Shown here in pieces: positions 30-54,475 of a stretch of 61,109 bases of DNA (position 1 is the first letter of the stretch; the number at the start of each line of letters is the position of its first letter). The DNA is from a bacterium (GTDB lineage Bacteria > Verrucomicrobiota > Verrucomicrobiia > Chthoniobacterales > JAFAMB01), in assembly GCA_046727495.1 (NCBI GenBank), contig JBKPCS010000029.1:1-61109 (forward strand), given 5' to 3'. Below the pieces are notes generated by a model. That model ran no database searches and was not told the origin of the DNA. It saw only the letters and a program-made list of their open reading frames with translations. The position numbers and the translations under genes were made by a program.

Positions 30-150
30 CAACTTGGGTAGCAGCTACACAACCGAGTACGAGGACGATTAGCTCTCTCAAGGTCCTATCCTTTGCGTCT
101 TTGCGTCTTGGCGTGAGATCCTTTTTGCGTCTTGGCGTGACGTCCCCTTT
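30..150. repeat. Direct repeat copy 1: 3' end of the ORF truncated by the window edge ('...EYEDD*') plus a CTTKGCGT word array
   Basis: gagtacgaggacgattagctctctc (55-79) followed by ctttgcgtctttgcgtcttggcgtgagatc...gcgtcttggcgtga (91-140). The same string recurs at 669-775 on the other side of the GNAT gene. Confidence 0.7.
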
Positions 151-646
151 TCCCGAGCGGCTTTACCAAGAAGAATCGTTGGTGTCCACGCGGATAGTCG
201 TTGAGAACACCAAAAACTTTGAACCCGGCCTTCTTATAAAAACCTGGCGCCTGGAAATCGAATGAATCAAGAAAGATGGCTTCGCAGCCTTGTTCCAAGG
301 CGAGGTTCTCCGCTGCGGCAAGCAGATTACGACCGACGCCTTTCCTGCGATGAGATTCGTTTACGAAAACCGCGCTGACGAAAAGATGGTTCCAGTGACA
401 ATTACAAAGCAAACCTCCCACCGGGTCTGTTCCCCGGTCGTACGCAAAGATGGCGAACCTGCGCACATTTCTTGACCCGGCTCGAGATTCGTTGAAGGCG
501 ATTAGCCGGTCGATGATCCAGCTTGCAGTATCGGGCGCCGGCTCTGGTTGGATTGCGATTTTGAAGGACACGGGAAAAGGATACACCGTCGACACTTTGA
601 ACGTTTCCGTTGGACTGTTCCTAACTGGACCGACGAACGAAAGCAA
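86..646 (-). CDS. GNAT family N-acetyltransferase
   Basis: 186-aa ORF with an acetyl-CoA-binding region 'VNESHRRKGVGRNLLAAAENLALEQGCEAIFLDSF' and 'FYKKAGFKVFG' typical of the GNAT fold. The listed start is TTG and the real start is uncertain (possibly near 'VSFKIAIQ'). The last ~20 codons (GKRGRHAKTQKGSHAKTQRRKG) are read out of the repeat array. Confidence 0.75.
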   Translation of the reverse strand: MLSFVGPVRNSPTETFKVSTVYPFPVSFKIAIQPEPAPDTASWIIDRLIAFNESRAGSRNVRRFAIFAYDRGTDPVGGLLCNCHWNHLFVSAVFVNESHRRKGVGRNLLAAAENLALEQGCEAIFLDSFDFQAPGFYKKAGFKVFGVLNDYPRGHQRFFLVKPLGKRGRHAKTQKGSHAKTQRRKG

Positions 647-785
647 ATTGGTGAGAGCTGCGCCAATCGAGTACGAGTTCGAGGACGATTAGCTCTCTCT
701 TAAGGTCTGCGAAGGACCCTTAACCTTTGCGTCTTTGCGTCTTGGCGTGAGATCATTTCAGCGTCTTGGCGTGAGGTCCTTTTCT
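640..785. repeat. Direct repeat copy 2 (degenerate copy of an ORF tail '...EYEFEDD*' plus a CTTKGCGT word array)
   Basis: gagtacgagttcgaggacgattagctctctc (669-699), then a small hairpin ttaaggtc..gacccttaa, then ctttgcgtctttgcgtcttggcgtgagatc...gcgtcttggcgtga (725-775). It is collinear with 30-150. Confidence 0.7.
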
Positions 786-833
786 GTGCCTGGGCATGGA
801 GTCGCCGCGCCGAACGCCAAACGCGCCGCGCCT

Positions 834-1172
834 CTACGTCTGGTGAAAGAAACGCAGCTGTTCGTGCAACGTTTCTACCTCTCTGGCGAGTCGCATGATC
901 AACTTGATACCGTGGAAATTAATGCCACAGGCGGAGCGAAGGTATTCAATCCGGCGTAAGACCCGAATCCCTTCGTCATCGAAGCACCAGCCCTCGGTCG
1001 CTGGATCTACTACCGGCGATACCAGACCGTGCTTGCAATAGAACGCGACATGTCTGCGTGAGATATGCGCCAGAGCTGCTGCTGAGTCGATCGTGTAGAG
1101 CGTACGCGCATCGGGCTCGAAAACTTGGACCGCCATCGTTTCAAATGAGCTGTCGAACGGATTCATCGTCAT
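834..1172 (-). CDS. MerR-family HTH protein, CbpM/HspR-like chaperone modulator
   Basis: 112 aa with a MerR-type HTH 'YTIDSAAALAHISRRHVAFYCKHGLVSP'. It lies directly downstream of the CbpA-type DnaJ gene, as cbpM/hspR-type genes do. Confidence 0.6.
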   Translation of the reverse strand: MTMNPFDSSFETMAVQVFEPDARTLYTIDSAAALAHISRRHVAFYCKHGLVSPVVDPATEGWCFDDEGIRVLRRIEYLRSACGINFHGIKLIMRLAREVETLHEQLRFFHQT

Positions 1173-1267
1173 CTCCAGCCTTACGTTGTTCCTGGGTTTA
1201 AACTGCGAAAATCTCGCTCAGCCGTCCGCCTTGGTCCCGCCAGCCGCGGGACTATGGCGAGGCAGCT

Positions 1268-7042: not shown

Positions 7043-7048
7043 TGTGTC

Positions 7049-7077
7049 TGTAGGGCGGCAGGCCCTGCCGCCCTACA
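7049..7077. repeat. REP-like perfect hairpin tgtagggcggcagg-ccctgccgccctaca
   Basis: A palindromic 29-mer in the 44-nt paaG-paaH spacer. Related copies are at 42685-42711 (ggcggcagcagggcctgccgccctaca) and, partially, at 14681-14700. Confidence 0.7.
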
Positions 7078-7086
7078 CCATACCTG

Positions 7087-10336: not shown

Positions 10337-10394
10337 AGGAGGGGGCCGGGAGGACCGGGGTTCAGTTTTCGGTTGTCGGTTGTCGGTTTTCCGT

Positions 10395-11498: not shown

Positions 11499-11551
11499 GG
11501 GTGGGACCTATACGACCTATAGGACGTATATGATTTATGCGGGATGAGCGA

Positions 11552-12052: not shown

Positions 12053-12825
12053 TGGGCTCCGGGGTAGGCTCGTTGTAAGAATTGCATCTCAGCGAGGATG
12101 TATCCTAGGCGTTCACTATGGGTTCCGCGTTTGCCGCCCCGCTGCATCCAGCAGTCAGCTGGAACCTTCAGCGTCGCTTCTTCGAGCGTCTGTGACATCC
12201 GGTTCAACCATGGGTCGCGAAGCGCCCGAAGATCGCAGCCGATTTGTTGTTCCATCATCTCAATGTCGACTGCATCCATCTCGAACATTTCGCCCGTGAA
12301 CGGCCAGAGTGCGTTGATTGCTCGTTCCATCCGTGCGTGACTCTCTTCGGTTCCATCGCCTAGCCGGATTACCCAGGCAGAGCTCCGGTCCAGATGATAA
12401 CGGACCTCCTTCAGCGATTTTTCACTGATCTCGCGAACGCCCTGGTCGGAGGACGATTGCAAAGCCTGCAGAAGTAAGAAATGCCAGGCATCAAAATAGA
12501 ACTGCCGAGCGATGGTGTGCGCGTAATTGCCGTTCTCCTGTTCTACCAGCAGTAGGTTCCGAAAGTCGTGGGCATCACGTAGGAACGCGAGCTGGTCTGC
12601 GTCCCTGCCTTTGTCTTCGATTTTGCCGGCGTATTCGAGCCAGAGTTGGGCCTGACCTAGCAAATCGAGAGCGACATTAGTTTGCGCGAGATCCTCTTCG
12701 AGAACGGGGCCGTGGCCACACCACTCAGCCAGTCGCTGGCTTAGTATCAAATCGTTATCGCCAAGCCGCAGAACATATTCAAAAAACTGCGCACTATTCC
12801 GGCTCACACTCGCACTAGCACTCAC
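12046..12825 (-). CDS. paaC: Phenylacetyl-CoA epoxidase subunit PaaC
   Basis: 259 aa with 'LRLGDNDLILSQRLAEWCGHGPVLEEDLA', typical of PaaC. It has a GTG start, and its first eight codons (MSASASVS) are encoded by a CACTCG/CACTAG word array. Confidence 0.85.
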   Translation of the reverse strand: MSASASVSRNSAQFFEYVLRLGDNDLILSQRLAEWCGHGPVLEEDLAQTNVALDLLGQAQLWLEYAGKIEDKGRDADQLAFLRDAHDFRNLLLVEQENGNYAHTIARQFYFDAWHFLLLQALQSSSDQGVREISEKSLKEVRYHLDRSSAWVIRLGDGTEESHARMERAINALWPFTGEMFEMDAVDIEMMEQQIGCDLRALRDPWLNRMSQTLEEATLKVPADCWMQRGGKRGTHSERLGYILAEMQFLQRAYPGAQW

Positions 12826-12827
12826 AC

Positions 12828-13109
12828 TCAGAGATGTTTTACTTCATCTGGCACCGGGTAAAATGTCGGGTGCCGGTAGATTTTTCCTTTTGGTGATTCA
12901 AAGAGCGCGTCCTTTTGATCTGGCTCGCTCGCTGTGATTTCGCTGGAACGAACGACCCAAATACTGGTCCCTTCGTTGCGCCTGGTATAAACGTCGCGTG
13001 CGTTCCGGATTGCCATCTCAGCATCAGCTGCATGCAAGCTGCCGACGTGCTTGTGAGCCAGTCCATGCTGGCTGCGAATGAATACCTCCCAAAGCGGCCA
13101 GTCCTTCAT
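12828..13109 (-). CDS. paaB: Phenylacetyl-CoA epoxidase subunit PaaB
   Basis: 93 aa with '[41 protein letters not shown]', the conserved PaaB core. Confidence 0.9.
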
Positions 13110-14146
13110 AACTGATTAACGCCGAGATCGCCGGGAACGCCGGGAACTGATTTTCCGATGCCGGCGGTCTCGGCGTTTCTCGTCTTCTCTGCGTAGGCAA
13201 GTGCTGCGTCCCGCACCCAGGCGCCTTCTTCGTGCGCTTTGATGCGAGCCTGCAGACGTTCGCGGTTACAGGGTCCGTTCCCTTTGATTACGTCGTAAAA
13301 TTCTGTCCAATCGATCTGGCCAAAATCATAGGATCCACGATCTGGGTTCCATTTGAGGTCGGGATCCGGGATTTTCAGTCCCAGATAGTCCGCCTGAGGC
13401 GCGGTTTGATCCACGAACCGTTGGCGTAGCTCGTCGTTTGTGAACAGTTTAATCCTCCACTGCTTCGATTGGGCCGTGTGCGGCGACTCGGCGTCAGGCG
13501 GACCAAACATCATCAGGGCAGGCCACCACCATCGATTCAACGCATCCTGTGCCATCGCTTTTTGCTGGGGCGTTCCCTTGACCAGCCGGCACAAGAGCTC
13601 GAACCCTTGCCGTTGATGAAAGCTTTCTTCTTTACAAATCCGCACCATCGCCCGCGCATAAGGTCCGTATGAACTCCGGCAGATCGGGATCTGGTTGATA
13701 ATAGCCGCGCCATCGACCAACCAGCCAATCGCGCCGATATCCGCCCAGGTCAGTGTCGGGTAATTGAAAATACTGGAGTACTTCGCTTTCCCGGAAAGAA
13801 GGTCGGCAATCAGCTGCTCTCGGGAAACACCGAGCGTCTCCGCCGCGCAATAAAGATAAAGTCCATGGCCAGCTTCGTCTTGAACTTTGGACAACAGGAT
13901 CATCTTACGTCGCAGAGTCGGCGCACGAGTAATCCAATTGGCTTCCGGAAGCTGGCCGACGATTTCTGAATGCGCGTGCTGCGATATCTGGCGGATCAGT
14001 GTCTTCCGGTATTTGTCCGGCATCCAGTCGTTAGGCTCGATCCTCGTTCCTGCGTCAACTCTCTCCTGAAAAACGCGTTCAGCCGGCTCGAGCTGGTTAA
14101 GAGAGCGAACCTTATTCACGCCGGTATCGACCATTTGCGCGTACAT
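13106..14146 (-). CDS. paaA: Phenylacetyl-CoA epoxidase catalytic subunit PaaA
   Basis: 346 aa, a di-iron ferritin-like oxygenase ('HAHSEIVG', '[11 protein letters not shown]', 'EESFHQRQG'). It is the first gene of the operon. Confidence 0.9.
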
Positions 14147-14188
14147 ATATTTTGGAACGCCGTCATCGCCGACAACTGGGTCTGCGTC

Positions 14189-14241
14189 AATGATACAATC
14201 TGATACAGATTCCTTGGATTCAAAGAAAATTCCGTATCATT
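14189..14241. promoter_or_regulatory. Candidate operator upstream of paaA: three TGATAC boxes including the inverted pair aatgatac / gtatcatt
   Basis: aatgatacaatctgatacagattccttggattcaaagaaaattccgtatcatt lies 43-95 nt upstream of the paaA start. No regulator gene is adjacent. Confidence 0.25.
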
Positions 14242-14673: not shown

Positions 14674-14740
14674 TAGTCGTGTTAGGCGGCAGGGCCAGCC
14701 CGATATCGACATAGAAGCACGACGAAATCGTCCTGCGTAA

Positions 14741-14770
14741 CACACGCCGATACGCCGACACGCCGATACA
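14741..14770. repeat. AYACGCCG word array
   Basis: cacacgccgatacgccgacacgccgataca. The same word family recurs at 36317-36345. Confidence 0.7.
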
Positions 14771-15214: not shown

Positions 15215-15353
15215 GTGGCGTTTTCGCGTCCGCCTCCGTCCCGCATCGGCGGGACTCCGGCGCGACAAGTTTTCGCGGTTTGCATTCTGGTGTTCTCGAC
15301 AACAAGACAAAAGGTTTGTCTACCCGAGTCAACTAGGTTTTCCTTGGAATAGC

Positions 15354-16265
15354 GTGAAGATTGGCTGTGTCATTCCTTCCTATAATCATGCGAAGTACGT
15401 CGGAGAAGCGATCCAATCCGTTCTCAACCAGACATTGCCGCCGGACCGGGTGATCGTGATCGACGACGGATCAACCGATGGGTCAATTGATCTGCTTCGC
15501 TCGATTAAGAATCAGAAGGTTTATCTCTACGAGCAGGCGAACGCCGGCGCCCACGTTGCTCTGAACCGGGGGCTTCAGCATTGTAAGGATTGCGACTTCA
15601 TCAGCATCTTGAATTCGGATGATCGGTATCATCCTGAGCGATTCGCGCGATGTGTCGGTTACCTCGAAAAGAATGCTGCTGCCAAACTGGTCTGCACACG
15701 TCTTCGTCTAATCGACCAGAACGGAAAACCAGTTGGTCAGCTCGATGGCCGGCAACGGCGGATCAATCGGATCTGGGCGAATTTGAGTACAACCCAGGAC
15801 CCAATTGGGTCGATGGGGCTCGGCAACTTCACCAAAACGACGAGCAATTTCTTTTTCCGGGCCGGAACCATTACGGAATTTCGGCCGTATCGGTATGTTC
15901 ATGATTATTTTGCGGCGCTGTTGGTCGCTTTCCGTGGCGGGTTGGGCATGATCCACGAGGACCTGATTGACTATCGCGTGCACGTGGCGAATACGATCAA
16001 AGCCGAAGGCAAAGGCCCGGTGGTGGAAGAAGTGGTGCAGATGCATCTCGATTTACTTGCTGCGCTCCGTGCCGACCTGGAAACCAGTCCCTTGCTTCGG
16101 AAACAGGTGCTGGCCTATCTCAAAATCGCGTTCCAAAACTACACAGATATGCGGGCCGAGTTATTTGTGTTGGGAATAGCTCGAGCGCTCGCCGGCGATA
16201 GCAAAACGGCCGAGCCTTTCAGATGCTTTCCGGAAGTGAACGAGCCCTCAACACCGCCGCCCTGA
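15354..16265 (+). CDS. Family 2 glycosyltransferase
   Basis: 'IGCVIPSYNHAKYVGEAIQSVLNQTLPPDRVIVIDDGSTDGS' and a 'NSDD' acceptor-loop motif. The start was set to GTG 15354, because the longer ORF would overlap the divergent thioesterase. Confidence 0.75.
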   Translation: MKIGCVIPSYNHAKYVGEAIQSVLNQTLPPDRVIVIDDGSTDGSIDLLRSIKNQKVYLYEQANAGAHVALNRGLQHCKDCDFISILNSDDRYHPERFARCVGYLEKNAAAKLVCTRLRLIDQNGKPVGQLDGRQRRINRIWANLSTTQDPIGSMGLGNFTKTTSNFFFRAGTITEFRPYRYVHDYFAALLVAFRGGLGMIHEDLIDYRVHVANTIKAEGKGPVVEEVVQMHLDLLAALRADLETSPLLRKQVLAYLKIAFQNYTDMRAELFVLGIARALAGDSKTAEPFRCFPEVNEPSTPPP

Positions 16266-16270
16266 GATAA

Positions 16271-16430
16271 CGCCGTCAATGCCATCAACGCCGACAGTGC
16301 CAACAATGAACGAACGCAGCTTTTCTGCACGATGTCGGCGATGTTGGCATTGTCGGCGATGTTGGCATTGTTGGCGATGTCGGCGTTTTCATTGTCGGCG
16401 GTGTTGGCATTGATGGCATTGATGGCATTG
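16271..16430. repeat. Tandem ATTGTCGGCG/ATGTTGGC array with an inverted left arm
   Basis: About ten degenerate 8-10-nt units lie at 16331-16430. The left arm cgccgtcaatgccatcaacgccgacagtgccaacaatgaa (16271-16310) is an imperfect reverse complement of ttcattgtcggcggtgttggcattgatggcattgatggc (16389-16427). Confidence 0.8.
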
Positions 16431-16436
16431 TGTTGA

Positions 16437-18551
16437 ATGACCTCCGGACGCCCGGCTAACCGGCTCATTCACGAGAAATCGCCGTATCTGCTTCAGCATG
16501 CCTATAATCCGGTGGATTGGTATCCGTGGGGTAAAGAGGCGTTTCAAAAAGCCCAGGCAGAGAATAAGCCCATCTTTTTGTCAGTAGGTTATTCCACCTG
16601 TCATTGGTGCCATGTCATGGAACGGGAATCGTTCGAAAATCCGGCGGTCGCTGACCTGTTGAACCGGTACTACGTCAGTATCAAGGTCGACCGGGAAGAG
16701 CGCCCGGACGTGGATCGCGTGTACATGACGTTTGTGCAAAGCACAACGGGTGCTGGCGGCTGGCCAATGAGCGTCTTTTTGACGCCCGATCTCAAACCGT
16801 TCCTCGGAGGAACGTATTATCCGCCCGAGGACCGGTACGGCCGGCCGGGGTTCTCAACCCTGCTGACCCGGTTAGCCGATATTTGGCGCGAGACCCCCGG
16901 CAAAATCCTCGATCAAGGAAGCCACCTGACCGAGGTAATCCGCTCATATCTCAATGAGGCGCGACCGGCTGAATCCAGCCCGCTGAAAACAGAGTGGATG
17001 GATAAGGCTTTCGGACAGATCGCGGCCAGTTTCGATCCTGATGAAGGCGGATTTACCTCAGCGCCAAAGTTTCCGCGTCCAGCGGTTTTTTCATTCCTGC
17101 TTCGCTACGGAAGGCGTAGCAAGAAATCGCAGGCGTTCGATATGGTCGCGTTCACCCTGCGTAAGATGGCCGGAGGCGGCATCTACGATCATCTTGGAGG
17201 CGGGTTTCACCGCTATTCGGTCGACGAACGATGGCATGTGCCGCACTTCGAAAAGATGCTTTATGACCAGGCTCAATTGGCGATCGCGTATACCGAGCTA
17301 TTTCAGTTGACTGGAGATAAGGAGTTTGCGCAAGTCGTCCATGAAACACTGGATTACGTCCTGCGCGATCTCGCCTCGCCGAAGGGTGGTTTCTATTCGG
17401 CAGAAGATGCCGACAGCCTGCCTGAACCGGATGCGGTAGAGAAAAAGGAAGGCGCTTTCTACGTTTGGACGCAAGAGACCATCGATCGCGTTCTAACGCC
17501 GGACGAATCTCTCGTTTTTCGCCGAATGTACGGCGTGGAACCACACGGCAACGCCGCACCGGCCAGCGATCCTCACGGCGAGCTGGCCGGCCAGAATGTG
17601 CTTCTGAAGCAGAATGATTTGTCGCTGGTAGCTCACCTGACCGGAAAAAGCGAAGAGGAAGTCGCGGGCTTGATCTCGAGCGCGAAACAGAAGCTGAAGG
17701 CTGTTCGAGATCGGCGACCGCGGCCGCATCTTGACGACAAGATCGTAACTGCCTGGAACGGTCTGATGATCTCTGCCCTAGCAAAAGCGTCCCAGGCGTT
17801 TTCGGAAACGCGTTATCTTGAGGCCGCTAAACGTGCTGCCGATTTCTTACTGAAGAATTTGTATCCGCAGCGCTTACTACGCAGCTTCCGCGATGCGCCG
17901 AGCGCCGTGTACGCGTTTGCCGAAGACTACGCGTTCCTGATCCAAGGGTTGCTCGATCTGTATGAGTCAGATTTCGATGTTCGATGGCTAAAGTCAGCCG
18001 GCGAACTGCAGGTCCAGATGAACGCTCTGTTCTCGGATCCGAAAGGCGGCTATTTCAATACTGAAGAAGGAGCACACGACATTCTGTTTCGGATGAGAGA
18101 CGATCACGATGGAGCGGAGCCATCAGCGAACTCGGTTGCTGCACTGAACCTGACGAGGCTGGCGTGGATTTTAGGGGCAAAGGAATTCCAGCACGCGGCC
18201 GCCCGCTTGATCGGGTCGTTCCATACAACTCTGCAGGCAGCGCCGGCAGCGCTTCCGCAAATGCTCGCAGCAACGGATGCCGCGATCAGCGAACCAGTTC
18301 AGATCGTGATCGCCGGCGATCAGGTTAACGCAGAGCAGATGCTCCGCATCGTTGGACAATCGTATCTGCCAAATAAAGTCCTGTTGCTGGCTGACAGCGG
18401 TGACAACCAGAGCTTCCTCGCCCAGCATGTTCTTGAGATGGCGCACATGAAACCAATCGACGGCAAGCCGACTGCCTACGTTTGCCGTAACTTTGTTTGC
18501 GATCTGCCGGTAACAGACCCGGATGCGCTGCGCGAGAAACTAGGCCTCTAA
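16437..18551 (+). CDS. Thioredoxin-domain protein, YyaL/DUF255 (SSP411-like) family
   Basis: 704 aa, '[55 protein letters not shown]', followed by an (alpha/alpha)6 barrel-like C-terminus. Confidence 0.85.
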
Positions 18552-18654
18552 ATTGGATGGACGGAAGCTCGAATCTCGAAGCTAGAATCTCGAAGACAAT
18601 GGCCCACGTGGCATTCTGTTTCGCGGTAGCCGGACCGACGTCGATCGAGAACGA

Positions 18655-18700
18655 CTCCTAGCTCCTGGCTCCTGACTCCTGGCTCCCGACTCCCGCCTCC
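18655..18700. repeat. CTCCTRR heptamer array (copy 1)
   Basis: ctcctagctcctggctcctgactcctggctcccgactcccgcctcc. A near-identical array in the same orientation lies at 19322-19365. Confidence 0.8.
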
Positions 18701-18800
18701 TTTTTTCTGAAACTTCGGTACCTGGTTTCCTCTGTAATGGACGGCGGACCAAAAGTTGGCCGCAAACATCAACTCCAACCGGAACCTCTGAAGGGCTACC

Positions 18801-19215: not shown

Positions 19216-19321
19216 CACCGGTTCCGCAGCAAAATGAAACTCTGGGTCGCAAGGCGTACCGCTGCCCGCTAACCTCGCGCTTCAGTCGAGGACGAGGACG
19301 AGAACGAGTTCGAGGCCCCTT

Positions 19322-22033: not shown

Positions 22034-22083
22034 GACCTAGGCCCGAAAAATTAAACAGAAGATCGTAAAGGGCAAACGGATCA

Positions 22084-33268: not shown

Positions 33269-33272
33269 ACGA

Positions 33273-35473: not shown

Positions 35474-35500
35474 AGAATATGTTGTCCCGTAGGGACAAAA

Positions 35501-36265: not shown

Positions 36266-36398
36266 GAGACAATGAATAAAACGCAGACCTGTCCACCATA
36301 GCAACCGTGAAGGTGGACACGCCGACACGCCCATACGCCCATACAATCTATTCCCCGTCCTTGAGTTCTTGACCAGATGAGTACAGAGTCTGCCCTCG

Positions 36399-37688: not shown

Positions 37689-38773
37689 GCGTGCAAGGAA
37701 GCGCGATAACTGGCGTAATCGAGCGCTACCGGAGATATTTACCGGTCACAGATCGGACTCCGATCGTTTCTCTGAACGAAGGGTCCACCCCGCTGATTTA
37801 CTCGCCGCGACTCAGCGCGTTAACCGGAGAAAATCGTCGAGTGTTCTTGAAACACGAAGGACTAAATCCCACTGGTTCCTTTAAAGATCGCGGCATGACC
37901 GTTGCCGTCAGCAAAGCCGTTGAGGCAGGCGCACGCCTGTTGATTTGCGCGTCAACCGGGAATACATCGGCTTCGGCCGCGGCTTACGCAGCTCGCGCCG
38001 GCCTTCAGTGTGCGGTGCTGTTGCCGGCAGGCAAAATCGCACTGGGAAAACTGGCACAAGCGTTTGTCCACGGGTCAAAGGTCATTGCTTTAGAAGGAAA
38101 TTTCGATCAATGCCTGGGAGTTGTACGCGATCTATCCGCTGAGCCTGGGATCGCCGTGGTGAATTCCATCAATCCAGACCGATTGGCAGGACAAAAGACT
38201 GCTGCTTTCGAGATTGTCGATGTTTTAGGAGACGCGCCGCATCTTCATTTCTTGCCGGTCGGTAACGCCGGTAACACAGCGGCCTATTGGAAAGGTTATT
38301 GTGAGTACCATGTTGCGGGATTGACCGATCGGCTGCCAAGAATGTTCGGATTTCAAGCGGCTGGCGCCGCGCCGATCTATTATAAAAAGGTCATTGATCA
38401 GCCGGAGACCGCGGCATCCGCGATCCGAATCGGGAACCCGGCAAGTTGGGGATTAGCAAAAACCGCATTCGCGGAATCGAACGGCGCAATTGATATCGTT
38501 ACCGACGAACAGATTTTTGCTGCTCAGCGCTGGCTGGCATCGGAGGAAGGTCTCTTTGTAGAACCGGCAAGCGCCGCCGCCATTGCCGGGCTGTTGAAAT
38601 ATTGCGAATCGCGCAAGAACCCGCCTTTGGGCGATCTTCCCGAGAACGCAGTGATTGTGTGCACGTTAACCGGACACGGATTGAAAGATGTTGCGGCAGT
38701 GTTGGAGCGTGGAGTCGAGCCGATTAAAGTCGCACCGGAGAAGAATGCAGTATTAGGGATTTTGGAAGGATGA
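37685..38773 (+). CDS. thrC: Threonine synthase
   Basis: '[24 protein letters not shown]' is the PLP-lysine motif. The gene has 4-nt overlaps with hom and with the downstream ORF. Confidence 0.9.
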
Positions 38774-38853
38774 AAAGGTCGTGTCCGCGTGTCGGCGCAC
38801 GTTTGGCGCTGATCCGATGCCGTCGATCCCGCTCGATCCCATTCGATTATCAC

Positions 38854-40077
38854 ATGAGTTTGTTTGTTCAAAAATATGGCGGCACTTCGGTCGGCACTAC
38901 TGACCGGATTCTGAATGTCGCTCGGCGCATTTTGGCTACTCAAGCTAAAGGTAACCAGGTGGTTGCTGTCGTCTCCGCGATGTCGGGTGTGACCGATAAC
39001 CTGATTAAGCTGGCTCGACAGGTGGCGCCTCATCCGGCAGAGCAGGAAATGGATGTTTTGCTGGCGACCGGCGAGCAAACGACAATCGCGCTCACGGCAA
39101 TGGCTATTAACGCTCTCGGTGGACACGCGGTTTCGTTGACCGGGGCTCAGGCTGGAATCGTTACCGACGGTGTCCATACCCGGGCGAAGATTGCGAACAT
39201 TACGCCTAAACGAATCCACACTTTGCTAGACGACGGAAACATTGTGATCGTCGCCGGGTTCCAAGGTGAAAGCCTTGAGGGACGCATCACCACCTTAGGC
39301 CGAGGTGGATCAGATCTGACTGCAATCGCTTTGGCGGCTGCAATCAAAGCGGATCTCTGTCAGATATTTACCGATGTGGAGGGTGTTTACACCTGCGATC
39401 CGCGGATTGTAAAGAGCGCGCGGAAACTGCCGGAAATTTCGTATGATGAAATGCTGGAGATGGCCAGCCTTGGCTCGAAGGTTATGCAATCGCGCTCGGT
39501 CGAATTCGCGAAGAAATTCCGCGTATTATTCGAAGTCCGTAGCAGTTTCAATGAAGAACCAGGAACGTTGGTAAAAGAGGAGACGACACGCATGGAACAT
39601 GTGGTTATCCGCGGGATCAGTGTCGATCGCAAACAAGCGAAAGTCACAGTGAGTCATGTCCCGGATCAGCCGGGAGTTGCTTCTCGGATTTTCACCGAGA
39701 TCGCCGCGATCGGAGTCAACGTAGATATGATCGTGCAGAACGTTTCTGCGGCGGGCACGACCGACATCACCTTCACAACAAACACTGAAGAACTGCATAA
39801 GATGGAAAAGCATCTGGATCCGATTGTTCAGGAAATCGGCGCCAAAGGATTTGTCGCGCAGGGCGGAGTGGCAAAGCTCAGTGTTGTCGGAATTGGTATG
39901 CGGTCGCATTCCGGCGTTGCTGCCCGGATGTTCGAATTGCTCGGCAAAGCCGGGATCAACATTCAGATGATCAGCACATCGGAGATCAAAATTTCTGTGA
40001 TCGTCGACGAGGACCGGGTGGATGAAGGAGCGAACATCATCCATGCCGGGTTTGGGTTGGATTTTGCGCAGCCGTAG
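38854..40077 (+). CDS. lysC: Aspartate kinase
   Basis: From the ATG at 38854: 'LFVQKYGGTSVGTTDRILNVARRI', 'GRGGSDLTAIALAAA' and two C-terminal ACT domains. Confidence 0.9.
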   Translation: MSLFVQKYGGTSVGTTDRILNVARRILATQAKGNQVVAVVSAMSGVTDNLIKLARQVAPHPAEQEMDVLLATGEQTTIALTAMAINALGGHAVSLTGAQAGIVTDGVHTRAKIANITPKRIHTLLDDGNIVIVAGFQGESLEGRITTLGRGGSDLTAIALAAAIKADLCQIFTDVEGVYTCDPRIVKSARKLPEISYDEMLEMASLGSKVMQSRSVEFAKKFRVLFEVRSSFNEEPGTLVKEETTRMEHVVIRGISVDRKQAKVTVSHVPDQPGVASRIFTEIAAIGVNVDMIVQNVSAAGTTDITFTTNTEELHKMEKHLDPIVQEIGAKGFVAQGGVAKLSVVGIGMRSHSGVAARMFELLGKAGINIQMISTSEIKISVIVDEDRVDEGANIIHAGFGLDFAQP

Positions 40078-42684: not shown

Positions 42685-42711
42685 GGCGGCAGCAGGGCCT
42701 GCCGCCCTACA
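42685..42711. repeat. REP-like hairpin ggcggcag-cagggcctgccgccctaca
   Basis: A second copy of the element at 7049-7077. Confidence 0.6.
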
Positions 42712-42779
42712 GCGCACAACGGCATAAGAAAAAGTCTGCGTAATCGGCGAAATCTGTGGTTCTTTCTGCGTATTCTCTT

Positions 42780-44727: not shown

Positions 44728-44769
44728 AAGGAACCGCAGATTAGGCAGATTCCACAGATTCTTTGAGCG

Positions 44770-45583: not shown

Positions 45584-45722
45584 GGGCTGCGTTCACGCGC
45601 TGGGCGGTCGAGCTGGGAAGCTCAACCCACGGTGAAGCTACCCCGAATGCTTTCGGGGTTCGGTCGGATCCTCCGGATTCATCCGCCATTGGCGGATTGA
45701 TCTTCTAGATCGACCTTCTTCG
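45584..45722. repeat. Structured direct repeat, copy A (flanks the ADP-ribosylglycohydrolase gene)
   Basis: It shares ttcacgcgctgggcggtcgaSctgggaagctcaacccacggtgaagct and gatcttctagatcgaccttct with 46925-47042. The centre holds the hairpins ccccgaatgctttcgggg and atccgccattggcggat. Confidence 0.8.
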
Positions 45723-45801
45723 CCATAAGTCGACGCGCTTGAGCGGCTGCGGGACACCTTGAGAATTTGCGAATGGACGCAATCTGGTGCTAGGAAAACA
45801 T

Positions 45802-46854
45802 ATGACGATTTCTATCCGTGACAGAGCGGCCGGGGCTGTGATTGGTGCCCTTGTTGGCGATGCTCTCGGATTGGGTCCGCATTGATACTACGATCTAGGG
45901 GACCTCAGACGGGATTACGGCGCCTGGATTTCGAATTACACCGACCCGAAACCTGGGCGCTACCATAGCGGGATGAAAGCAGGCCAGTTGGATCAGACCG
46001 GATTGCTCTTAGTACTTCTGCTGCGTTCAGTTGTTGAAAACGGCGATTACAACGAGGCCGATTTCACCCGCCGGTTCGATGAGTTTTTTCGGGAAATTGA
46101 TGGAACGCCGCGGCATGGACCTGGCGGATACACAAGTCAATCGATCCGTGAAGCATTTCGTAAACGGGTCCAGGAAAGGCTCGATTGGACGCAGACCGGA
46201 GGTAATGCGGACACAACTGAGGCGGCTGAACGCTCAATCGTTCTTGCGGCTCGATATGCGTTGGACCCCGGCAAAGTAGCGGAGATGGTCTCCGGGCACT
46301 GCGAGCTCACACAATCTGATCCGGCGATCGTTGCAATGTCTACCGCTTATAATGCGGTACTCGCTCTCCTAGTTTCGGGCGAACCCTTGGATGCGGAAAT
46401 CTCCGACAAATTGATGGGGCTCGTCCGGAAAGGGCGTCTGCCGTTTCAATCCGTTACTCTTCAACCGCCTGTGGCCGGAAAATTCTCATCGCCGGATGCT
46501 CTGGCTACTCCGTCCTACATGGCCGAGACAGCTTTCGATCCCGATATTCGGATTGAGCCAGCCTGGAAAGTCTCTCTGGTATACGGCATGCCCTGCGCCA
46601 TTTATCATCAACTGCCAGCTGCTTACTACCTTGCAGCCAGGTTTCGTGACGATTTCGAGTCGGCTGTGCTCTATGCAGTCAATGGCGGTGGACAAAACAT
46701 GGCTCGAGCCTGCTTGACTGGAGCTTTAGTTGGCGCTCAAGTCGGGCTATCCGGGATCCCAAAGCGATTTGTCGATGGCCTGGAAAAACATGATGAACTA
46801 GTCGCGCTTGCGAAAAGCCTCGGTGGGCTGGCAAGTAGTAGCGCGCCGCAATAA
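45802..46854 (+). pseudogene. ADP-ribosylglycohydrolase-family gene interrupted by an in-frame TGA at codon 28
   Basis: 'MTISIRDRAAGAVIGALVGDALGLGPH*YYDLGDLRRDYGAWISNYTDP...' continues in frame into ORF 45973-46854. The TGA (45883-45885) sits where the family has Trp in 'GPHWYYDL', as I recall it. Confidence 0.7.
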
Positions 46855-46924: not shown

Positions 46925-47042
46925 GGGTTGCATTCACGCGCTGGGCGGTCGACCTGGGAAGCTCAACCCACGGTGAAGCTCGAAGCTTCGGCCGAATCCT
47001 TCGGATTCACCGTGGGTTGATCTTCTAGATCGACCTTCTGTG
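46925..47042. repeat. Structured direct repeat, copy B
   Basis: Nested stems: ggtcga...tcgacc, a perfect 14-bp stem caacccacggtgaa/ttcaccgtgggttg, and inner hairpins cgaagcttcg and ccgaatccttcgg. Confidence 0.8.
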
Positions 47043-47151
47043 CCTTGGCGCCGCGCCGGCACCCCTACGCGAAGCCTTGCGGGCAAGTCTTTGCGCGAGG
47101 AGCCGAGTTGTCAACGGTCGCGTTTCCGACTAGTGTACGCGCTCCCGAGAT

Positions 47152-48516: not shown

Positions 48517-48597
48517 AGCATCACACCGCTGCAGGGGCGGACGCTAAATCGCGATCGATAGTAGTGCTCCTCCGGCTGGCAGTAACTCTTTGTTAGG

Positions 48598-48629
48598 AAA
48601 TCTGCGGAATCTGTGTAATCTGCGGTTCC
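48598..48629. repeat. AATCTGYGG nonamer array
   Basis: aaatctgcggaatctgtgtaatctgcggttcc lies 10 nt upstream of the ATG at 48640. Related copies are at 42733-42762, 44731-44761 (inverted) and 51181-51200 (partial). Confidence 0.75.
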
Positions 48630-48639
48630 TAATTTTCCA

Positions 48640-49209
48640 ATGGAATACCCTGCTCGTATCTACGATTTCGGTCTGCAGGCTGTTGCCCTGGTGGTTGGCG
48701 TGCTTATCCTCGCCGGTCACCTGGTGGCGTTGTTGCGCCCGGAACAGACAAAACAATGGTTACTCAGGTTCCCGCGCTCCCGGATGCTCGGGCTGGTGTT
48801 GCTAGCGGTCGATGCAATCGGGTTCTTTTGGCTGATGTCCAACGTTGATCTCGAGGACTTCGCAAAATATCGGCAGATGATTCAGATCGCGATTCCGGTG
48901 CTGGCTATACTGAGTGCAGTGTTTGTGCCGGAATTCCTAGCTGTGCGCGCGCTTGGCATCATGGCTTTGCTGGCCGGAGAGCCAATTCTTTCGGCGGGTT
49001 TCCTACGCCCGGAACCGGGGCGGCTGTTGTTGGTACTCGTCGCCTATATCTGGCTAACACTCGGTTTAATCTGGGTTGCCTCCCCTTACCTGCTGCGAGA
49101 TCAAATCACCTGGGTGACAAAGAGCGCTGCCCGGTTCCGAACAGCGGCATTATGCGGCGTGGTGTGCGGAGCGGCGGTGCTTGCGTTTGGAATGATCGTT
49201 AGAGGGTGA
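48640..49209 (+). CDS. Hypothetical integral membrane protein
   Basis: 189 aa with five to six hydrophobic segments and no recognised motif. Confidence 0.55.
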   Translation: MEYPARIYDFGLQAVALVVGVLILAGHLVALLRPEQTKQWLLRFPRSRMLGLVLLAVDAIGFFWLMSNVDLEDFAKYRQMIQIAIPVLAILSAVFVPEFLAVRALGIMALLAGEPILSAGFLRPEPGRLLLVLVAYIWLTLGLIWVASPYLLRDQITWVTKSAARFRTAALCGVVCGAAVLAFGMIVRG

Positions 49210-49259
49210 TTGGGAGGGCGGCGCGCTAGGGCTGTCGCAAAGCGACGACAAATAATCTA

Positions 49260-49423
49260 AGCCAGGGTGAGCCCGCCGTACTGGCGGGCGAACCCTCGAA
49301 CGTACGTATTAGGCGACTCGTCCTGCAGGGATGCCAGATGCGAGGCACGCGCTCTCTTTGGCCCTTTCAGGGCCGACCTGATTGGATGCCGATACCAGGG
49401 GTTCGCTCCCCTCACCCCTGGCT
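49260..49423. repeat. MITE/REP-like structured element (second copy of the 35294-35473 family)
   Basis: agccagggtgagcccgccgtactggcgggcgaaccct ... ggccctttcagggcc ... ccaggggttcgctcccctcacccctggct. ORF 49267-49512 is a translation of it. Confidence 0.7.
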
Positions 49424-49503
49424 TTCATTTGCTGTCGCGTTGCGACGAACAATTCCGTGGCAGGTATTGCCAGCTTGAGCGCGAACGACCTAACCCTACA
49501 GAT

Positions 49504-52471: not shown

Positions 52472-52526
52472 CGCGTCGGTTGGCCGAAAAATGGCTTGTC
52501 GCTTTGCGACTTCGGTTCCACAGGGT

Positions 52527-53447
52527 TCAATTCGAACTGTTCATGTGCCGTGCAGACGACATCAACGCCGCCAAAATTGATCCGTAGAAAAGAATCGCCA
52601 AAACGCAACAAACAATGATCGGCAGGAGAACGGCCATGACTGCACGCCAATTCTCGGTTTTGTGGACTTCACGCAGACCGATCACCGCGCATACTAATGA
52701 CCAGATTCCGCCGATTGATGTTCCTACAAACGGGATCACCGCGAAGACCAGTCCGCTTGCGCAATAACTGAGCACTCGATACGTCGCCTCGTAGCTTTTC
52801 GACGTTCCTTTCATTAGCATCAGACAGAAATGTAAAACACCGGCGTGGACGAAGTTCATCCCGATAGCGAGCGGGATCCCGACGATGGCGACAATTACAA
52901 AGGTTAAAAGCGCGCCGGCTAGTCCCATCCCTGGGGCGCCCATCCCGTGCCGATGGGTATCTGACATCATCCCGGCGGCGCCGATCAGACCGACCCAAAA
53001 AATCTGGTAGATGGCGGTCAAGGCGAACAGCAGCGTCGTCATGACTGCCTGAAAAAGCAGCGGTGACGCATACCCGCCGCTGGTTTTCAATCGTTGAAAT
53101 GTTGCTGCCGGAGAAAACAGGATTTCTTTCCAGGTTGCGAAGAGCGCTTTTCCGAAACCCAATTGCTGGCGATGCTCCCATGAGGGAGCAGCTTCTGCGC
53201 CTTCGACAACGGCAACCGCTTGCGCTGGTGTAGCTTGAGGCGCGCTCGGAACAGGCGGTTGAGCAACCGGTGCCTGCGCCTGCGGCATTCTAAGTTCCGG
53301 AAATTCTGAGAGAGGCTTCCAGTTTTCCATGCCTTCTCGCCATCCAAGATCCGTCGGGAGATATTGTCCCGAGTCCAGGCCGCGTTGCACTTCTTCGACG
53401 TCGAGCGTCCCAAGGTTCTGACCAGCGCGATTGATCCAGATCTTCAT
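52527..53447 (-). CDS. GYF_2 (DUF4339) domain fused to a Yip1-like multi-pass membrane domain
   Basis: 'MKIWINRAGQNLGTLDVEEVQRGLDSGQYLPTDLGWREGMENWKPLSEF' is a bacterial GYF domain. It is followed by a Pro/Ala linker and five hydrophobic helices. Confidence 0.75.
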   Translation of the reverse strand: MKIWINRAGQNLGTLDVEEVQRGLDSGQYLPTDLGWREGMENWKPLSEFPELRMPQAQAPVAQPPVPSAPQATPAQAVAVVEGAEAAPSWEHRQQLGFGKALFATWKEILFSPAATFQRLKTSGGYASPLLFQAVMTTLLFALTAIYQIFWVGLIGAAGMMSDTHRHGMGAPGMGLAGALLTFVIVAIVGIPLAIGMNFVHAGVLHFCLMLMKGTSKSYEATYRVLSYCASGLVFAVIPFVGTSIGGIWSLVCAVIGLREVHKTENWRAVMAVLLPIIVCCVLAILFYGSILAALMSSARHMNSSN

Positions 53448-53614
53448 GTTGACCCGGGTTTTTAGCGGAAAGCGCCTAAGAGATCAATGGCCCGCCAACA
53501 ATATCCCTACGAAGCCCGGGAATGAAATCCGATCAAAAAGAAGACGACGCTCAGCAAAACCAGAACAAACCCACAATAAGCGACGACCGGTATGAGAACC
53601 GCTATGGTCGCTCG

Positions 53615-54361
53615 CTAACCCTCGGTTTTATGGACTTTCTGCAGACCGACCGCCATACAGATTAGCCCCCAAATCCAGCTAACGTATAGACCAAAGAATG
53701 GGATCACCCCAAAGACATATGCACTGGAGCAGTAACTCGTGACGCGATAAGTCGCTTCGTAGGCTTTGGACTTCCCTTTCATGAGCATCAGACAGAAGTG
53801 GAAGACGCCGGCGAGGACGAAGTTCAGCCCGATCGAGAGCGGGACCCCGACGAGAATCGGCCCTGCATAGTATAGAAGCGTAGGCTCTGCGGGCCAACCG
53901 ATCGTCACACCCACGGTCCGAAAGATCGCGAGGACTGCCATCAGTAGCGTGGTCATGATCGCCTGAAAAAGAAGCGGCGCCGCGAATCCGCCACTGGATT
54001 TCAGTTGTCCAAACGTCGTTCCCGGATAGAAAAGAACTTCTTTCCACGTTGTAAAAAGGGCTTTTCCAAAACCCGTCTGGCGCCGCCGCTCCCATGCGGG
54101 TGCAGCTTCGGCGCGTTCGACCACCTCAGTCGGTTGTTGGGGCGCCGCTTGAGCTGCGCCCGACACAGGCAGTTGAACAGCAGGCACTTGCGCCCGCAGC
54201 AGGCGTAGCTCCGGAAATTCTGAGAGCGGTTTCCAGTTTTTCGTGCCTTCACGCCAACCGAGGTCAGTTGGAAGATATTGACCCGAATCCAGGCCTCGTT
54301 GCACCTCCTCCGAATCCAATGTGCCAAGGTTCTGGCCCGCGCGATTGATCCAGATCTTCAC
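53615..54361 (-). CDS. Tandem paralog of the GYF-Yip1 protein, shortened by a TAG at the position of a Trp codon
   Basis: The first 50 aa are nearly identical to 52527-53447 (GTG start). It ends 'VHKTEG*' where the paralog reads 'VHKTENW...'. The frame stays open for 35 more codons (53510-53614) that encode the homologous last helix 'RATIAVLIPVVAYCGFVLVLL'. Confidence 0.7.
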   Translation of the reverse strand: MKIWINRAGQNLGTLDSEEVQRGLDSGQYLPTDLGWREGTKNWKPLSEFPELRLLRAQVPAVQLPVSGAAQAAPQQPTEVVERAEAAPAWERRRQTGFGKALFTTWKEVLFYPGTTFGQLKSSGGFAAPLLFQAIMTTLLMAVLAIFRTVGVTIGWPAEPTLLYYAGPILVGVPLSIGLNFVLAGVFHFCLMLMKGKSKAYEATYRVTSYCSSAYVFGVIPFFGLYVSWIWGLICMAVGLQKVHKTEG

Positions 54362-54400
54362 GTTGACCCGGGTTTAGCGGAAAGCCCAGTGAAGATCAAT

Positions 54401-54475
54401 GAGTGTTAGTGCTAGGGCTAGTATGGCCTGCCCCTTGTCGCTGCTTTGCTAGCACTAGCGCTAACACTAGCACTC
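54401..54475. repeat. Inverted GTGCTAG/CTAGCAC hexamer arrays
   Basis: gagtgttagtgctagggctagt (54401-54422) faces gctagcactagcgctaacactagcactc (54448-54475). This is the same word family as 22574-22684. Confidence 0.75.

Follow-up and report, generated by a model that had tools for sequence, protein, structure and literature searches.

Arrays of short degenerate words and their inverted pairs at gene junctions of a verrucomicrobial contig

The short tandemly repeated repetitive (STRR) sequences of cyanobacteria were originally described as heptamers in Calothrix and Nostoc. Together with heptameric simple sequence repeats (SSRs) and the paired tandem sites of Geobacter, they have drawn notice for decades, yet neither a function nor a mechanism of spreading has been demonstrated for them. 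Heptamers of the types GGGGAYT and GGGAATC occur in Nostoc and Xanthomonas, heptamer SSRs are over-represented in many bacteria, and little work has been devoted to SSRs with units of 6–9 nt (PMC4692102). Manual curation of the Geobacter metallireducens genome revealed four kinds of tandem site: GTTGCTYN octamers, four to a site, in 24 pairs; TCTCCGTS(Y) units, three in tandem, in 21 pairs; MTYCTGA heptamers, five in tandem, in 8 pairs, such as the one that separates proB from proA; and GGACCGG heptamers, four in tandem, in 49 elements (Aklujkar et al. 2009, PMC2700814). The members of a pair are on opposite strands at variable distance; the sites are species-specific, being absent from G. sulfurreducens, have insertion sequence (IS) elements at fixed distance from them, and were guessed to bind regulators of the IHF/HU type. 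That study only catalogued them, and strain variation, turnover and folding were not part of it (PMC2700814). TAACTGA direct repeats are shared by Beggiatoaceae, Cyanobacteria and Bacteroidetes (MacGregor 2015, PMC4679880). Here we analyze the 61,109-nt contig JBKPCS010000029.1 (the window, meaning the whole stretch of DNA), in which arrays of degenerate 6–10-nt words recur in the intergenic spacers. These word arrays are a verrucomicrobial variant of the poorly understood short-unit intergenic repeat arrays and not a categorically new kind of sequence.

The paired sites of G. metallireducens are the closest precedent that we found. The window resembles them in its several families of short tandem units, its opposite-strand pairs at variable distance, their intergenic location and their presence in one lineage but absence from a sister, and the CTCCTGA unit of its CTCCTRR family fits the Geobacter consensus MTYCTGA; it differs in phylum, in its otherwise different words and in its more degenerate units. 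No tandem dimers of GTTGCTYN, TCTCCGTS(Y), MTYCTGA or GGACCGG exist in the window, where only single CTCCTGA units fit MTYCTGA. With the STRR and heptamer SSRs of cyanobacteria and Xanthomonas the window shares several families of short tandem units per genome, a location that is about 90% intergenic near gene ends, and variation of length and sequence between close relatives; GACTCCT arrays like its CTCCTRR family occur in Nostoc plasmids. However, the arrays of cyanobacteria and Xanthomonas are mostly perfect 7-mers of specific sequence and belong to a different phylum, whereas the window has degenerate units of 6–10 nt and inverted pairs at a quarter of its sites. None of those heptamers stands in tandem in the window, where dimers of CCCCAGT, TTGGTCA, CAACAGT and GGGGATT number 0 each, and its aminotransferase homologues are verrucomicrobial rather than from a heterocystous cyanobacterium. 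The TAACTGA direct repeats are likewise spacer heptamers, many of which lie just upstream, by a few nucleotides, of a start codon that lacks a Shine-Dalgarno sequence, and their word is common to distant phyla with no evident mechanism of transfer; they differ in being a single word that is almost never inverted, and tandem TAACTGA is absent from the window. The initial annotation of this DNA had not recognized the architecture as any of several familiar repeat classes considered below; it does have precedents, in the heptamers of cyanobacteria and Xanthomonas (PMC4692102) and especially in the Geobacter pairs (PMC2700814).

In our judgment there is about an even chance that the arrays form a lineage-specific population of STRR-like repeat DNA, non-coding and non-autonomous, which lengthens by slippage, spreads from spacer to spacer leaving no transposon footprint and has side effects at the RNA level. 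We merged overlapping rows of Tandem Repeats Finder (TRF; period 5–10, at least 2.8 copies) into single arrays and used our own heuristic gene model, built from a codon-usage score and Pfam checks, which gives 86.3% coding sequence and 51 spacers of 8363 nt in total. By TRF and reading of the sequence, arrays are present at every coordinate that the initial annotation had given, with units of 6–10 nt, 2–10 copies and 71–100% matches, and they fall into about a dozen word families. Twenty of the 24 merged arrays are mostly intergenic, while intergenic bases make up 13.7% of the window (P = 3×10−14, binomial test), and the remaining four, nominally coding, all lie at extreme ends of open reading frames (ORFs). 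Eighteen arrays, 600 nt in all, lie within the spacers, where 200 dinucleotide-preserving shuffles gave 0.07 on average and never more than 2, and coding sequence holds 2 against 0.68 expected from such shuffles. The enrichment over shuffled controls that had been suggested as a check is thus borne out within the window. The statement that arrays occupy most spacers is too broad for the window as a whole (18 of the 45 spacers of at least 25 nt; 11 of 17 before 24.1 kb and 7 of 28 after it). Arrays occur in co-directional, convergent and divergent spacers and adjoin or overlap start and stop codons, as had been noticed, and we saw no consistent bias of the window arrays toward either codon. A Pfam-A scan of 40 window ORFs assigns the neighbours to housekeeping families (the paa operon, DnaJ, alanine racemase, ThrC, aspartokinase, argininosuccinate lyase, TatC and a MiaB-like enzyme, among others) or to no match, and detects no transposase or integrase among these ORFs. 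The arrays, in forward-strand coordinates, are as follows.

55–71: words of the GAGKWCGAG type at the 3′ end of a partial plus-strand ORF; the left part of a composite repeat that recurs at 665–692.
87–145: CTTKGCGT 8-mer array, composite, inside the 3′ end of the GNAT ORF, where it would encode a tail.
665–692: second copy of the GAGKWCGAG words.
721–782: second copy of the CTTKGCGT 8-mer array, in the MerR–GNAT spacer.
10365–10393: array of CGGTTGT heptamers, separated by 6 nt from the PaaE-like gene's stop codon.
11505–11530: GACCTATAC 9-mer array in the PaaD–PaaE spacer; similar words fill the DsbH–Alr spacer of the relative L084.
12803–12830: CACTCG/CACTAG hexamer array at the PaaB stop and PaaC start, in frame.
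13118–13147: AACGCCGGG 9-mer array in the last codons of PaaA; here L084 has GTGCTAGT-type words with a 6-nt unit polymorphism between strains.
14741–14770: ACGCCGAY 8-mer array in a convergent spacer; same family as at 36316, and in opposite orientation in L084.
16269–16430: inverted pair of ATGTTGGC/ATTGTCGGC 9-mer arrays filling the GT2–DsbH spacer, with an 18-nt higher-order period and a fold of −95.4 kcal/mol.
18564–18595: TCGAAKC heptamer array, solitary, with a 14-nt higher-order period and a 26-mer in common with 22089–22114.
18652–18701: CTCCTRR heptamer array, solitary and unstructured, then a T run; direct copy at 19319–19365.
19285–19314: GAGGAC/GAGAAC hexamer array.
19319–19365: second copy of the CTCCTRR heptamer array, adjoining the Alr stop codon.
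20525–20544: array of CACTCG hexamers in an 88-nt spacer, following the MauE stop codon at a distance of 3 nt.
22084–22157: inverted pair of TCGAAKC arrays forming a hairpin, arms at 22084 and 22133.
22575–22685: inverted pair of GTGCTAGT/CACTAG hexamer arrays filling a divergent spacer, arms at 22575 and 22627.
23837–24049: inverted pair of GTGAGAR heptamer arrays filling a convergent spacer and overlapping both stop codons, arms at 23837 and 24012.
31071–31097: TTTGCTA heptamer array over the stop codon of ORF 31075–32187.
36316–36344: ACGCCSAY 8-mer array in a divergent spacer, absent from the orthologous spacer of the relatives L333 and L334.
38815–38847: CGATCCC-type 10-mer array in an 84-nt insert at the ThrC/aspartokinase junction.
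42733–42779: degenerate 9-mer words of the AATCTGYGG type, located upstream of the gene for argininosuccinate lyase.
44729–44760: arm of the AACCGCAGATT... type (AATCTGCGN family, reverse orientation), starting 1 nt after the NUDIX stop codon in a 42-nt insert.
48599–48630: AATCTGCGG 9-mer arm, 9 nt upstream of the start codon at 48640.
54401–54475: inverted pair of GTGCTAGT hexamer arrays overlapping the stop codon of ORF 54467–55165, arms at 54401 and 54449.

Assembly or sequencing artefacts have next to no probability as the source of these arrays. Short repeats can be mis-assembled and the window is a metagenome-type contig, but the arrays recur at orthologous positions in contigs assembled independently from different samples, surrounded by ordinary single-nucleotide divergence, and related hairpins stand in the finished records of the cultured Gemmatirosa kalamazoonensis and Bacteroides finegoldii. 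An independently assembled 5.4-kb metagenome contig of the Joint Genome Institute (L001) corresponds to window 15254–20619 at 99.83% identity; seven substitutions and one 2-nt gap separate the two, all outside arrays, and six of six arrays are identical. Homologues of the class-V aminotransferase gene (22692–23843) led to contigs from other samples with nucleotide identities of about 93% (L090), about 89% (L082 and L083) and about 78% (L084–L089), the last of which share their gene order with the window between PaaD and the aminotransferase. In every one of these contigs the corresponding spacers bear arrays. The named homologues of this aminotransferase all belong to Chthoniobacterales or Verrucomicrobia, at 73–75% amino-acid identity. 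The host is probably a soil bacterium of Verrucomicrobiota, similar to Chthoniobacterales; an acidobacterial origin, to which two Acido-Lenti-1 matches and weak DsbH matches had pointed, was rejected. Because independent contigs at several levels of identity bear arrays in orthologous spacers, the arrays are an authentic genomic feature, and the initial annotation's own proviso that they might be an assembly artefact falls away.

Several arrays at different loci are copies of one another. The arrays at 18564–18594 and 22084–22114 are 94% identical, including one identical 26-mer, those at 18655–18701 and 19319–19365 are 91% identical and those at 87–145 and 721–779 are 92% identical; 14741–14769 matches 36316–36344, 44729–44760 is 91% complementary to 48599–48630, and 22575–22601 is 89% complementary to 54449–54475. 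Such dispersed copies keep an identical order of unit variants. Local inverted pairs are found at five loci (16269/16388, 22084/22133, 22575/22627, 23837/24012 and 54401/54449), 24–107 nt apart, and their arms are inverted copies down to the order of unit variants, with 92–100% complementarity. A family that ends in the motif GGAACCGCAGATT turns up again in the relatives, in spacers that are not orthologous. With variant order shared between loci and the same families at non-orthologous spacers in relatives, the dispersed families proposed earlier are real.

Slippage is also observed directly. Among L084–L089, which are 99.7% identical, all three indels in about 14 kb lie within arrays (one AGTGCT unit, one GCGTTTG unit and one AC), and L083 has one TCGAGAT unit more than window 22133–22157; unit number, whose comparison between orthologous spacers had been recommended, thus differs between strains by 6-nt and 7-nt units. 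For several arrays, TRF finds a higher-order period of two units that fits much better than the single unit (14 nt at 94% versus 7 nt at 76–80%, and 18 nt at 94% versus 9 nt at 74%), which is the signature of block duplication of already diverged units. The claim that the arrays are not independent slippage products therefore survives in part: the dispersed copies uphold it, but slippage operates, since three of three indels among the 99.7%-identical strains fall in arrays and two of these are whole units. It is quite improbable that all arrays are independent local microsatellites, each grown in place by polymerase slippage, with similar words arising by convergence. Such microsatellites would agree with the unit indels between strains and the higher-order periods, with perfect CTCCTGR/GACTCCT SSRs in the unrelated Paracoccus, Pseudomonas, Nostoc and Burkholderia, and with the over-representation of heptamer SSRs in many bacteria (PMC4692102), but they would leave unexplained why dispersed copies share variant order and flanks (the 26-mer, and the 47- and 59-nt copies at 91–92%), why pair arms are inverted copies including variant order, why the GGAACCGCAGATT family occurs at non-orthologous spacers, and why 58 of the 135 metagenome arms listed below have an inverted partner, against 0 of 135 shuffled arms.

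Comparison of the relatives further reveals that one word family takes the place of another in the same spacer, as in the following cases.

Spacer after the aminotransferase gene: GTGAGAR pair in the window; a AACCGCAGATT...AATCTGCGGTT pair (AATCTGCGG family) in L082 and L083; half of one in L084.
DUF1573/119-aa gene spacer: TCGAAKC pair in the window and in L083; GTGCTAGT pair in L084.
GT2/DsbH spacer: 9-mers in the window; GCGTTTG heptamers in L084.
End of PaaA: AACGCCGGG words in the window; GTGCTAGT words in L084.

Arrays were gained in one sub-lineage. Three more distant syntenic relatives (L333, L334 and L335; contigs of 350–572 kb, 77% amino-acid identity) have one array in 52 kb, compared with 32 in 98 kb in the clade of the window (0.19 versus 3.25 per 10 kb; P = 9×10−7, Poisson test). 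In these distant relatives the genes at the ThrC/aspartokinase, NUDIX/TatC and MauE/Alr junctions meet in ATGA overlaps, whereas the window has inserts of 84, 42 and 88 nt with arrays; the MauE/Alr junction is an ATGA/TGATG overlap in both L333 and L084. Because the sister genomes have ATGA overlaps at these junctions, the arrays there are derived insertions that uncouple formerly overlapping genes. The 84-nt ThrC/aspartokinase insert (38770–38857) is flanked by ATGA on both sides, and since it is in frame and has no stop codon, either ATG could serve as the start of the aspartokinase; a 4-nt target duplication could account for the flanking ATGA, and so could selection for a regenerated start codon. 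On a larger scale, the aminotransferase gene in L333 and L334 nearly adjoins the methyltransferase–homoserine dehydrogenase block (window 35.5 kb onward), so that the block of about 11 kb at about 24000–35500 is specific to the lineage of the window. In L090 and L082, rearrangement breakpoints are located at array-bearing spacers (23830, 22209 and 28123).

The inverted pairs fold into structures that are far more stable than expected from shuffled sequences. The z-scores are −9.2 (16266–16436), −7.4 (23837–24049), −6.4 (22075–22165), −5.2 (22572–22691) and −5.2 (54395–54480), and at each of the five none of 200 shuffles was as stable as the real sequence; over the hairpins as a whole, z ranges from −3.6 to −9.2. 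Solitary arrays do not fold beyond shuffles (z = −1.7 to +1.9), some being less structured, with a single exception at 48590–48640 (z = −4.4), where the array pairs with its flanks. Hence the earlier prediction of long hairpins from many inverted pairs applies to five pairs and fails for about half of the arrays, which are solitary and unfolded. A role of the hairpins as terminators, which had also been put forward, lacks support in the data. A consensus scan of the window for intrinsic terminators returned 18 sites against 17.7 expected, and only the inner hairpin at 16342–16385 qualifies; a T-rich tract follows 5 of 30 hairpins of the 9-mer family described next; and hairpins are placed in 13 co-directional, 4 divergent and 3 convergent spacers, like ordinary spacers. 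The chance-level site count, the hairpins in divergent spacers and the paucity of T tracts all speak against it.

One family extends beyond the lineage. In one metagenome scan with AACCGCAGATTNNNCAGATT as a query, the AATCTGCGN 9-mer hairpin was listed on at least 120 contigs of 29–69% GC from soils, sediments, marine and gut samples. Most of these cannot be put down to chance: among the matches listed, a third 9-nt unit continues 87 of the 135 arms (about 1% expected by chance), and an inverted partner lies within 300 nt for 58 of 135 arms, in comparison with 0 of 135 shuffled arms. These make up at least 50 distinct hairpins of 59–275 nt, with variable or nested cargo of 10–230 nt between the arms, some having other hairpins nested in the centre, and the at least 120 metagenome loci hold 280 arrays in 656 kb among the matches listed. 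The hairpin is found in three phyla, Verrucomicrobiota, Bacteroidota and Gemmatimonadota; in Bacteroides finegoldii it lies between an oxidoreductase gene and serC, at about 14166–14236 of NZ_OY725969.1, and in Gemmatirosa kalamazoonensis on a 1.1-Mb plasmid. Phages gave no match to the 9-mer hairpin, and a scan of viral contigs with AGCACYAGCACYAGCACY produced 120 loci that we judged, from the match spacing (contiguous 18-nt runs), to be mostly in-frame hexamer repeats and which therefore tell nothing about the present question. The hairpin class was found neither in Rfam nor in the searchable literature, a literature search with the literal sequence had no match, and searches for repeats of Verrucomicrobia and Udaeobacter returned nothing relevant.

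Exact 13-mer sharing between the window arrays and 80 taxonomically mixed genome loci is near chance for all families except AATCTGYGG; because of this, a shared vocabulary is established for AATCTGYGG alone, and that of CTCCTGR and CTTGGCG was recognized by eye or by BLAST. In Paracoccus, Pseudomonas and Nostoc the CTCCTGR/GACTCCT heptamers make up perfect SSRs, and BLAST gave additional matches in Burkholderia and other cyanobacteria. On plasmid pPAN3 of Paracoccus pantotrophus (L336, 601–695) a perfect (GGCTCCT)×13 array begins a few nucleotides after the 3′ end of an apparent tRNA gene. Paired word arrays also appear in loci of Spartobacteria (L003), Prosthecobacter (L008), Opitutus (L009) and Bryobacterales (L077) that had been fetched for another reason. 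Spacers of the metagenome contigs L097 (1030–1390 and 4650–4960), L180 and L203 consist wholly of nested hairpins with at least four word types (CACCGATT, CGCAGATT, CACAGAGG, CTTGGCG and CGCAACGA; also CACAGAG), the densest form of the phenomenon that we observed. We suggest, tentatively and as the less probable side of the question, that the (NCGCAGATT)n ... (AATCTGCGN)n hairpin, perhaps with a wider vocabulary (CACAGAG, CTTGGCG, CACCGATT, CACGAAG and CTCCTGA), may represent a cross-phylum, sequence-conserved class of foldback element. If so, the cross-phylum core would imply either a conserved word-reading partner in trans or a tiny, horizontally spreading, self-nesting element without a transposase-type footprint.

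Eukaryotic foldback elements have long inverted arms made of short degenerate tandem sub-repeats. Mycobacterial interspersed repetitive units (MIRUs), with units of 46–101 nt, lie between operon genes, overlap stop and start codons and contain small ORFs for translational coupling; the window arrays resemble them in their placement between operon genes and differ in unit size, 6–10 nt here. Foldback elements and miniature transposable elements with inverted repeats (MITEs) are matched in the long inverted arms around a variable centre and in the nested arrangements, but the window hairpins, of 60–270 nt, have no target-site duplication, defined ends or transposase. It is rather unlikely, in this light, that the arrays are miniature transposable elements of MITE-, REPIN- or foldback-like type, whose arms would be the sites of a transposase encoded elsewhere and whose decayed halves would be the solitary arrays. 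Terminal inverted arms around variable or nested cargo of 10–230 nt, gain in a sub-lineage with empty sites in sister genomes, the same family across phyla, the ATGA on both sides of the 38770–38857 insert, and the fixed distance of IS elements from the Geobacter sites (PMC2700814) are all in favor of this possibility. Nevertheless, of 30 AACC...GGTT hairpins, 24 have no target-site duplication, 5 have one of 1 nt and 1 has one of 2 nt, which is the level of chance; hairpin length (59–275 nt) is not conserved and the centres are unrelated or nested, so that neither element length nor internal sequence is fixed; an all-against-all BLASTP of 532 ORFs from the 120 listed loci yields no cluster in more than 5 loci, which leaves no recurrent neighbour gene, nor is there a transposase among the scanned window ORFs; and flanks often just continue the palindrome. 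The single arms, moreover, are not palindromic, unlike repetitive extragenic palindromic (REP) sequences.

A REP unit, in itself an imperfect palindrome of 20–40 nt, bears a GTAG or CGTC tag and has a link with the RAYT transposase (PMC3733652; PMC3116915). Like REPs, bacterial interspersed mosaic elements (BIMEs) and REPINs, the arrays are abundant, intergenic and non-autonomous, would form stem-loops in mRNA, fill convergent and co-directional spacers and differ between strains; unlike them, their arms are tandem words, solitary arrays are unfolded and no better at folding than shuffles, and no RAYT (TnpA_REP) gene is present among the 40 window ORFs scanned with Pfam. The units are 6–10 nt and contiguous, in contrast to the 23–47-nt repeats, with unique spacers of similar length between them, of CRISPR loci. 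Contingency microsatellites share with the arrays the variation in unit number (6-nt and 7-nt indels between 99.7%-identical strains), but the units here are imperfect, matching at 71–94%, and the neighbours are housekeeping genes (the paa operon, Alr, ThrC, TatC and others) rather than phase-variable surface or restriction-modification genes. Mixed gene orientation, housekeeping genes and the lack of an integrase among the scanned ORFs separate the arrays from integron attC sites, which have RYYYAAC...GTTRRRY cores and belong to co-oriented cassettes beside an integrase. No Rfam family matches the arrays, and five hairpin-bearing loci in E-value mode gave only chance microRNA matches. The initial annotation had not recognized the arrays as REP, BIME, CRISPR, MITE or classical microsatellite sequences, and they do fail the tests for these classes, although pair arms with 83–100% complementarity are a property that they share with MITEs.

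A mechanism can be proposed for the STRR-like repeat DNA that we favor. An array of 3–10 degenerate units of 6–10 nt would change its length by replication slippage of one- or two-unit blocks, and whole arrays would be copied to other spacers, often as two inverted copies that give a stem-loop of 25–45 bp. Copies would land at gene boundaries, where they are tolerated, and quick turnover would let one word family replace another. Because target-site duplications and a linked gene are lacking, spread would most likely take place by template switching, by ectopic gene conversion or recombination between spacers, or through a trans-acting factor. The main consequence is probably at the RNA level, in that stem-loops or unstructured tracts would come to lie between cistrons, would separate genes that had once overlapped and could shield or expose the ends of mRNAs, for instance by serving as substrates of RNase III, and arrays would occasionally add repeat-encoded tails to proteins.

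Several observations weigh against so neutral an account. All relatives (93, 89 and 78% identity) have kept the GTGCTAGT hairpin that separates the 119-aa gene from the aminotransferase gene, with indels in unit multiples, and the arm segments GTGCTAGTGCTAGTTGACTTGC and CTAGCACCAGCACTAGCACT of this divergent spacer (22570–22691) are invariant while the coding flanks are only 78% identical; a comparison of the window with L083 shows higher conservation in the whole 22034–22209 spacer than in the genes. These suggest that the sequences are under constraint rather than junk. Three phyla, and contigs of 29–69% GC, conserve the CAGATT core of the 9-mer family, and for this reason neutral slippage is inadequate for the core. 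In a test for selection at the RNA level, the sense strand of oriented hairpins is more often the more stable one (24 versus 16, n = 40), with 130 versus 106 G-U pairs, a difference that is not significant (P = 0.11). Furthermore, the copying mechanism is itself a proposal. The conserved arms and the cross-phylum word core keep a sequence-specific reader and a mobile element in play.

Such a reader is the essence of another explanation, in which the arrays are cis-regulatory binding sites, each word family being read on DNA or mRNA by a multimeric protein (a global regulator, a nucleoid protein or a post-transcriptional regulator) and paired sites being bound as loops or hairpins. We regard this as unlikely. 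The invariant arm segments in orthologous spacers at 78% identity of the coding flanks and the conservation of CAGATT across phyla are consistent with binding, as are the many arrays that end 4–13 nt from start codons without an obvious Shine-Dalgarno sequence, and the idea has been proposed for the Geobacter pairs (PMC2700814) and the TAACTGA repeats (PMC4679880). However, a dozen unrelated families in 61 kb would demand numerous readers, close relatives carry different families in one and the same spacer beside the same housekeeping genes, syntenic sister genomes do without arrays, and unit number differs between strains; nor do the arrays have a consistent position relative to starts and stops or neighbours with a shared function.

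Arrays that reach into genes alter protein ends, and repeat-encoded tails are by-products of the arrays. In the MBL gene the TAG stop codon of L082 is GAG in the window, so that the ORF reads into the array and adds ...IEGRGVRGER*, and the N-terminus VSASASVS of PaaC is encoded by in-frame hexamers, with fewer CACTCG units in L084; both tails had been called correctly from the outset. The GNAT tail (...HAKTQKGSHAKTQRRKG*), also named there, extends beyond the Pfam domain and is plausible as a repeat-encoded end, which is as far as that claim can be upheld.

The window contains other repeats and candidate insertions. A composite element of word arrays, about 100 nt long, is present in direct copies at 45–145 and 660–782, which bracket the GNAT ORF (86–646), whose codon-usage score is the second lowest in the window; the gene looks like a cassette inserted by recombination between arrays. 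Between the direct CTCCTRR copies (18652–19365) lie a small ORF of 91 aa (18801–19076) and, extending to about 19215, a partial duplication of the 3′ half of this ORF, and both C-termini read FYAF..L.AVVS..SAFATLLD.L..G...YFVE.A.R*; the spacer that holds this ORF measures 813 nt in the window, 150 nt in L084 and 67 nt in L333. The ADP-ribosylglycohydrolase ORF (45973–46854) is flanked by direct repeats (45584–45724 and 46925–47044) of 56 and 31 nt at 95% and 90% identity, with a 34-nt palindrome at 46958–47025, and the TatC and MiaB-like genes are adjacent in L333, with no such gene called between them in L334; from its sequence context the ADP-ribosylglycohydrolase gene looks like an insertion. 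Considered as foreign cassettes, these repeat-flanked genes find weak support in codon usage, the GNAT gene being second lowest and the ADP-ribosylglycohydrolase gene not unusual.

The only Rfam matches at gathering level in the window are two opposite-strand matches to Acido-Lenti-1 (25599–25692; 41.8 and 38.1 bits, gathering score 37), which coincide with a perfect 24-nt inverted pair (25598–25621/25670–25693) in a convergent spacer; a verrucomicrobial host, if true, would place this motif outside Acidobacteria and Lentisphaerae. A G+C-rich, REP-like palindrome, CTGTAGGGCGGCAGGCCCTGCCGCCCTACA, which belongs to a class distinct from the word arrays, occurs in spacers at 7048–7078, more weakly at 14679–14700 and 42688–42712, and also in L090 at about 585–610. 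A BIME-like composite repeat of about 200 nt is present in two convergent spacers (35290–35500 and 49255–49460, 75% identity) and consists of small G+C-rich hairpins (GGCCCTAAAAGGGCC, CCAGGGGTTCGC...CACCCCTGG and GTCCCGTAGGGAC). Tandem paralogues with GYF and Yip1 domains (52527–53447 and 53615–54361) are 72% identical in nucleotides, and similar short sequences lie just beyond the 5′ end of each (53461–53489 and 54373–54401). The region 58000–60300, with a G+C content of 0.61 (0.654 in ORF 59001–60257) against 0.52–0.57 elsewhere, may be foreign DNA.

To the long-noticed short-unit repeats the window and its relatives add a quantified enrichment, direct evidence of slippage, of copying between loci, of family replacement and of recent lineage-specific gain at gene junctions, and one 9-mer hairpin family common to several phyla. 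In practical terms, such arrays yield spurious or extended ORFs, repeat-encoded tails and likely breakpoints in short-read assemblies. The relatives at 99.8, 93, 89 and 78% identity, together with the more distant ones, constitute a natural experiment in which the same operons are array-free, carry one family or carry another, and because these graded relatives share the same operons, gain, slippage, replacement and gene uncoupling can be read directly. The presence of the 9-mer family in the cultured Bacteroides finegoldii and Gemmatirosa kalamazoonensis makes its effect on transcripts open to testing at the bench.

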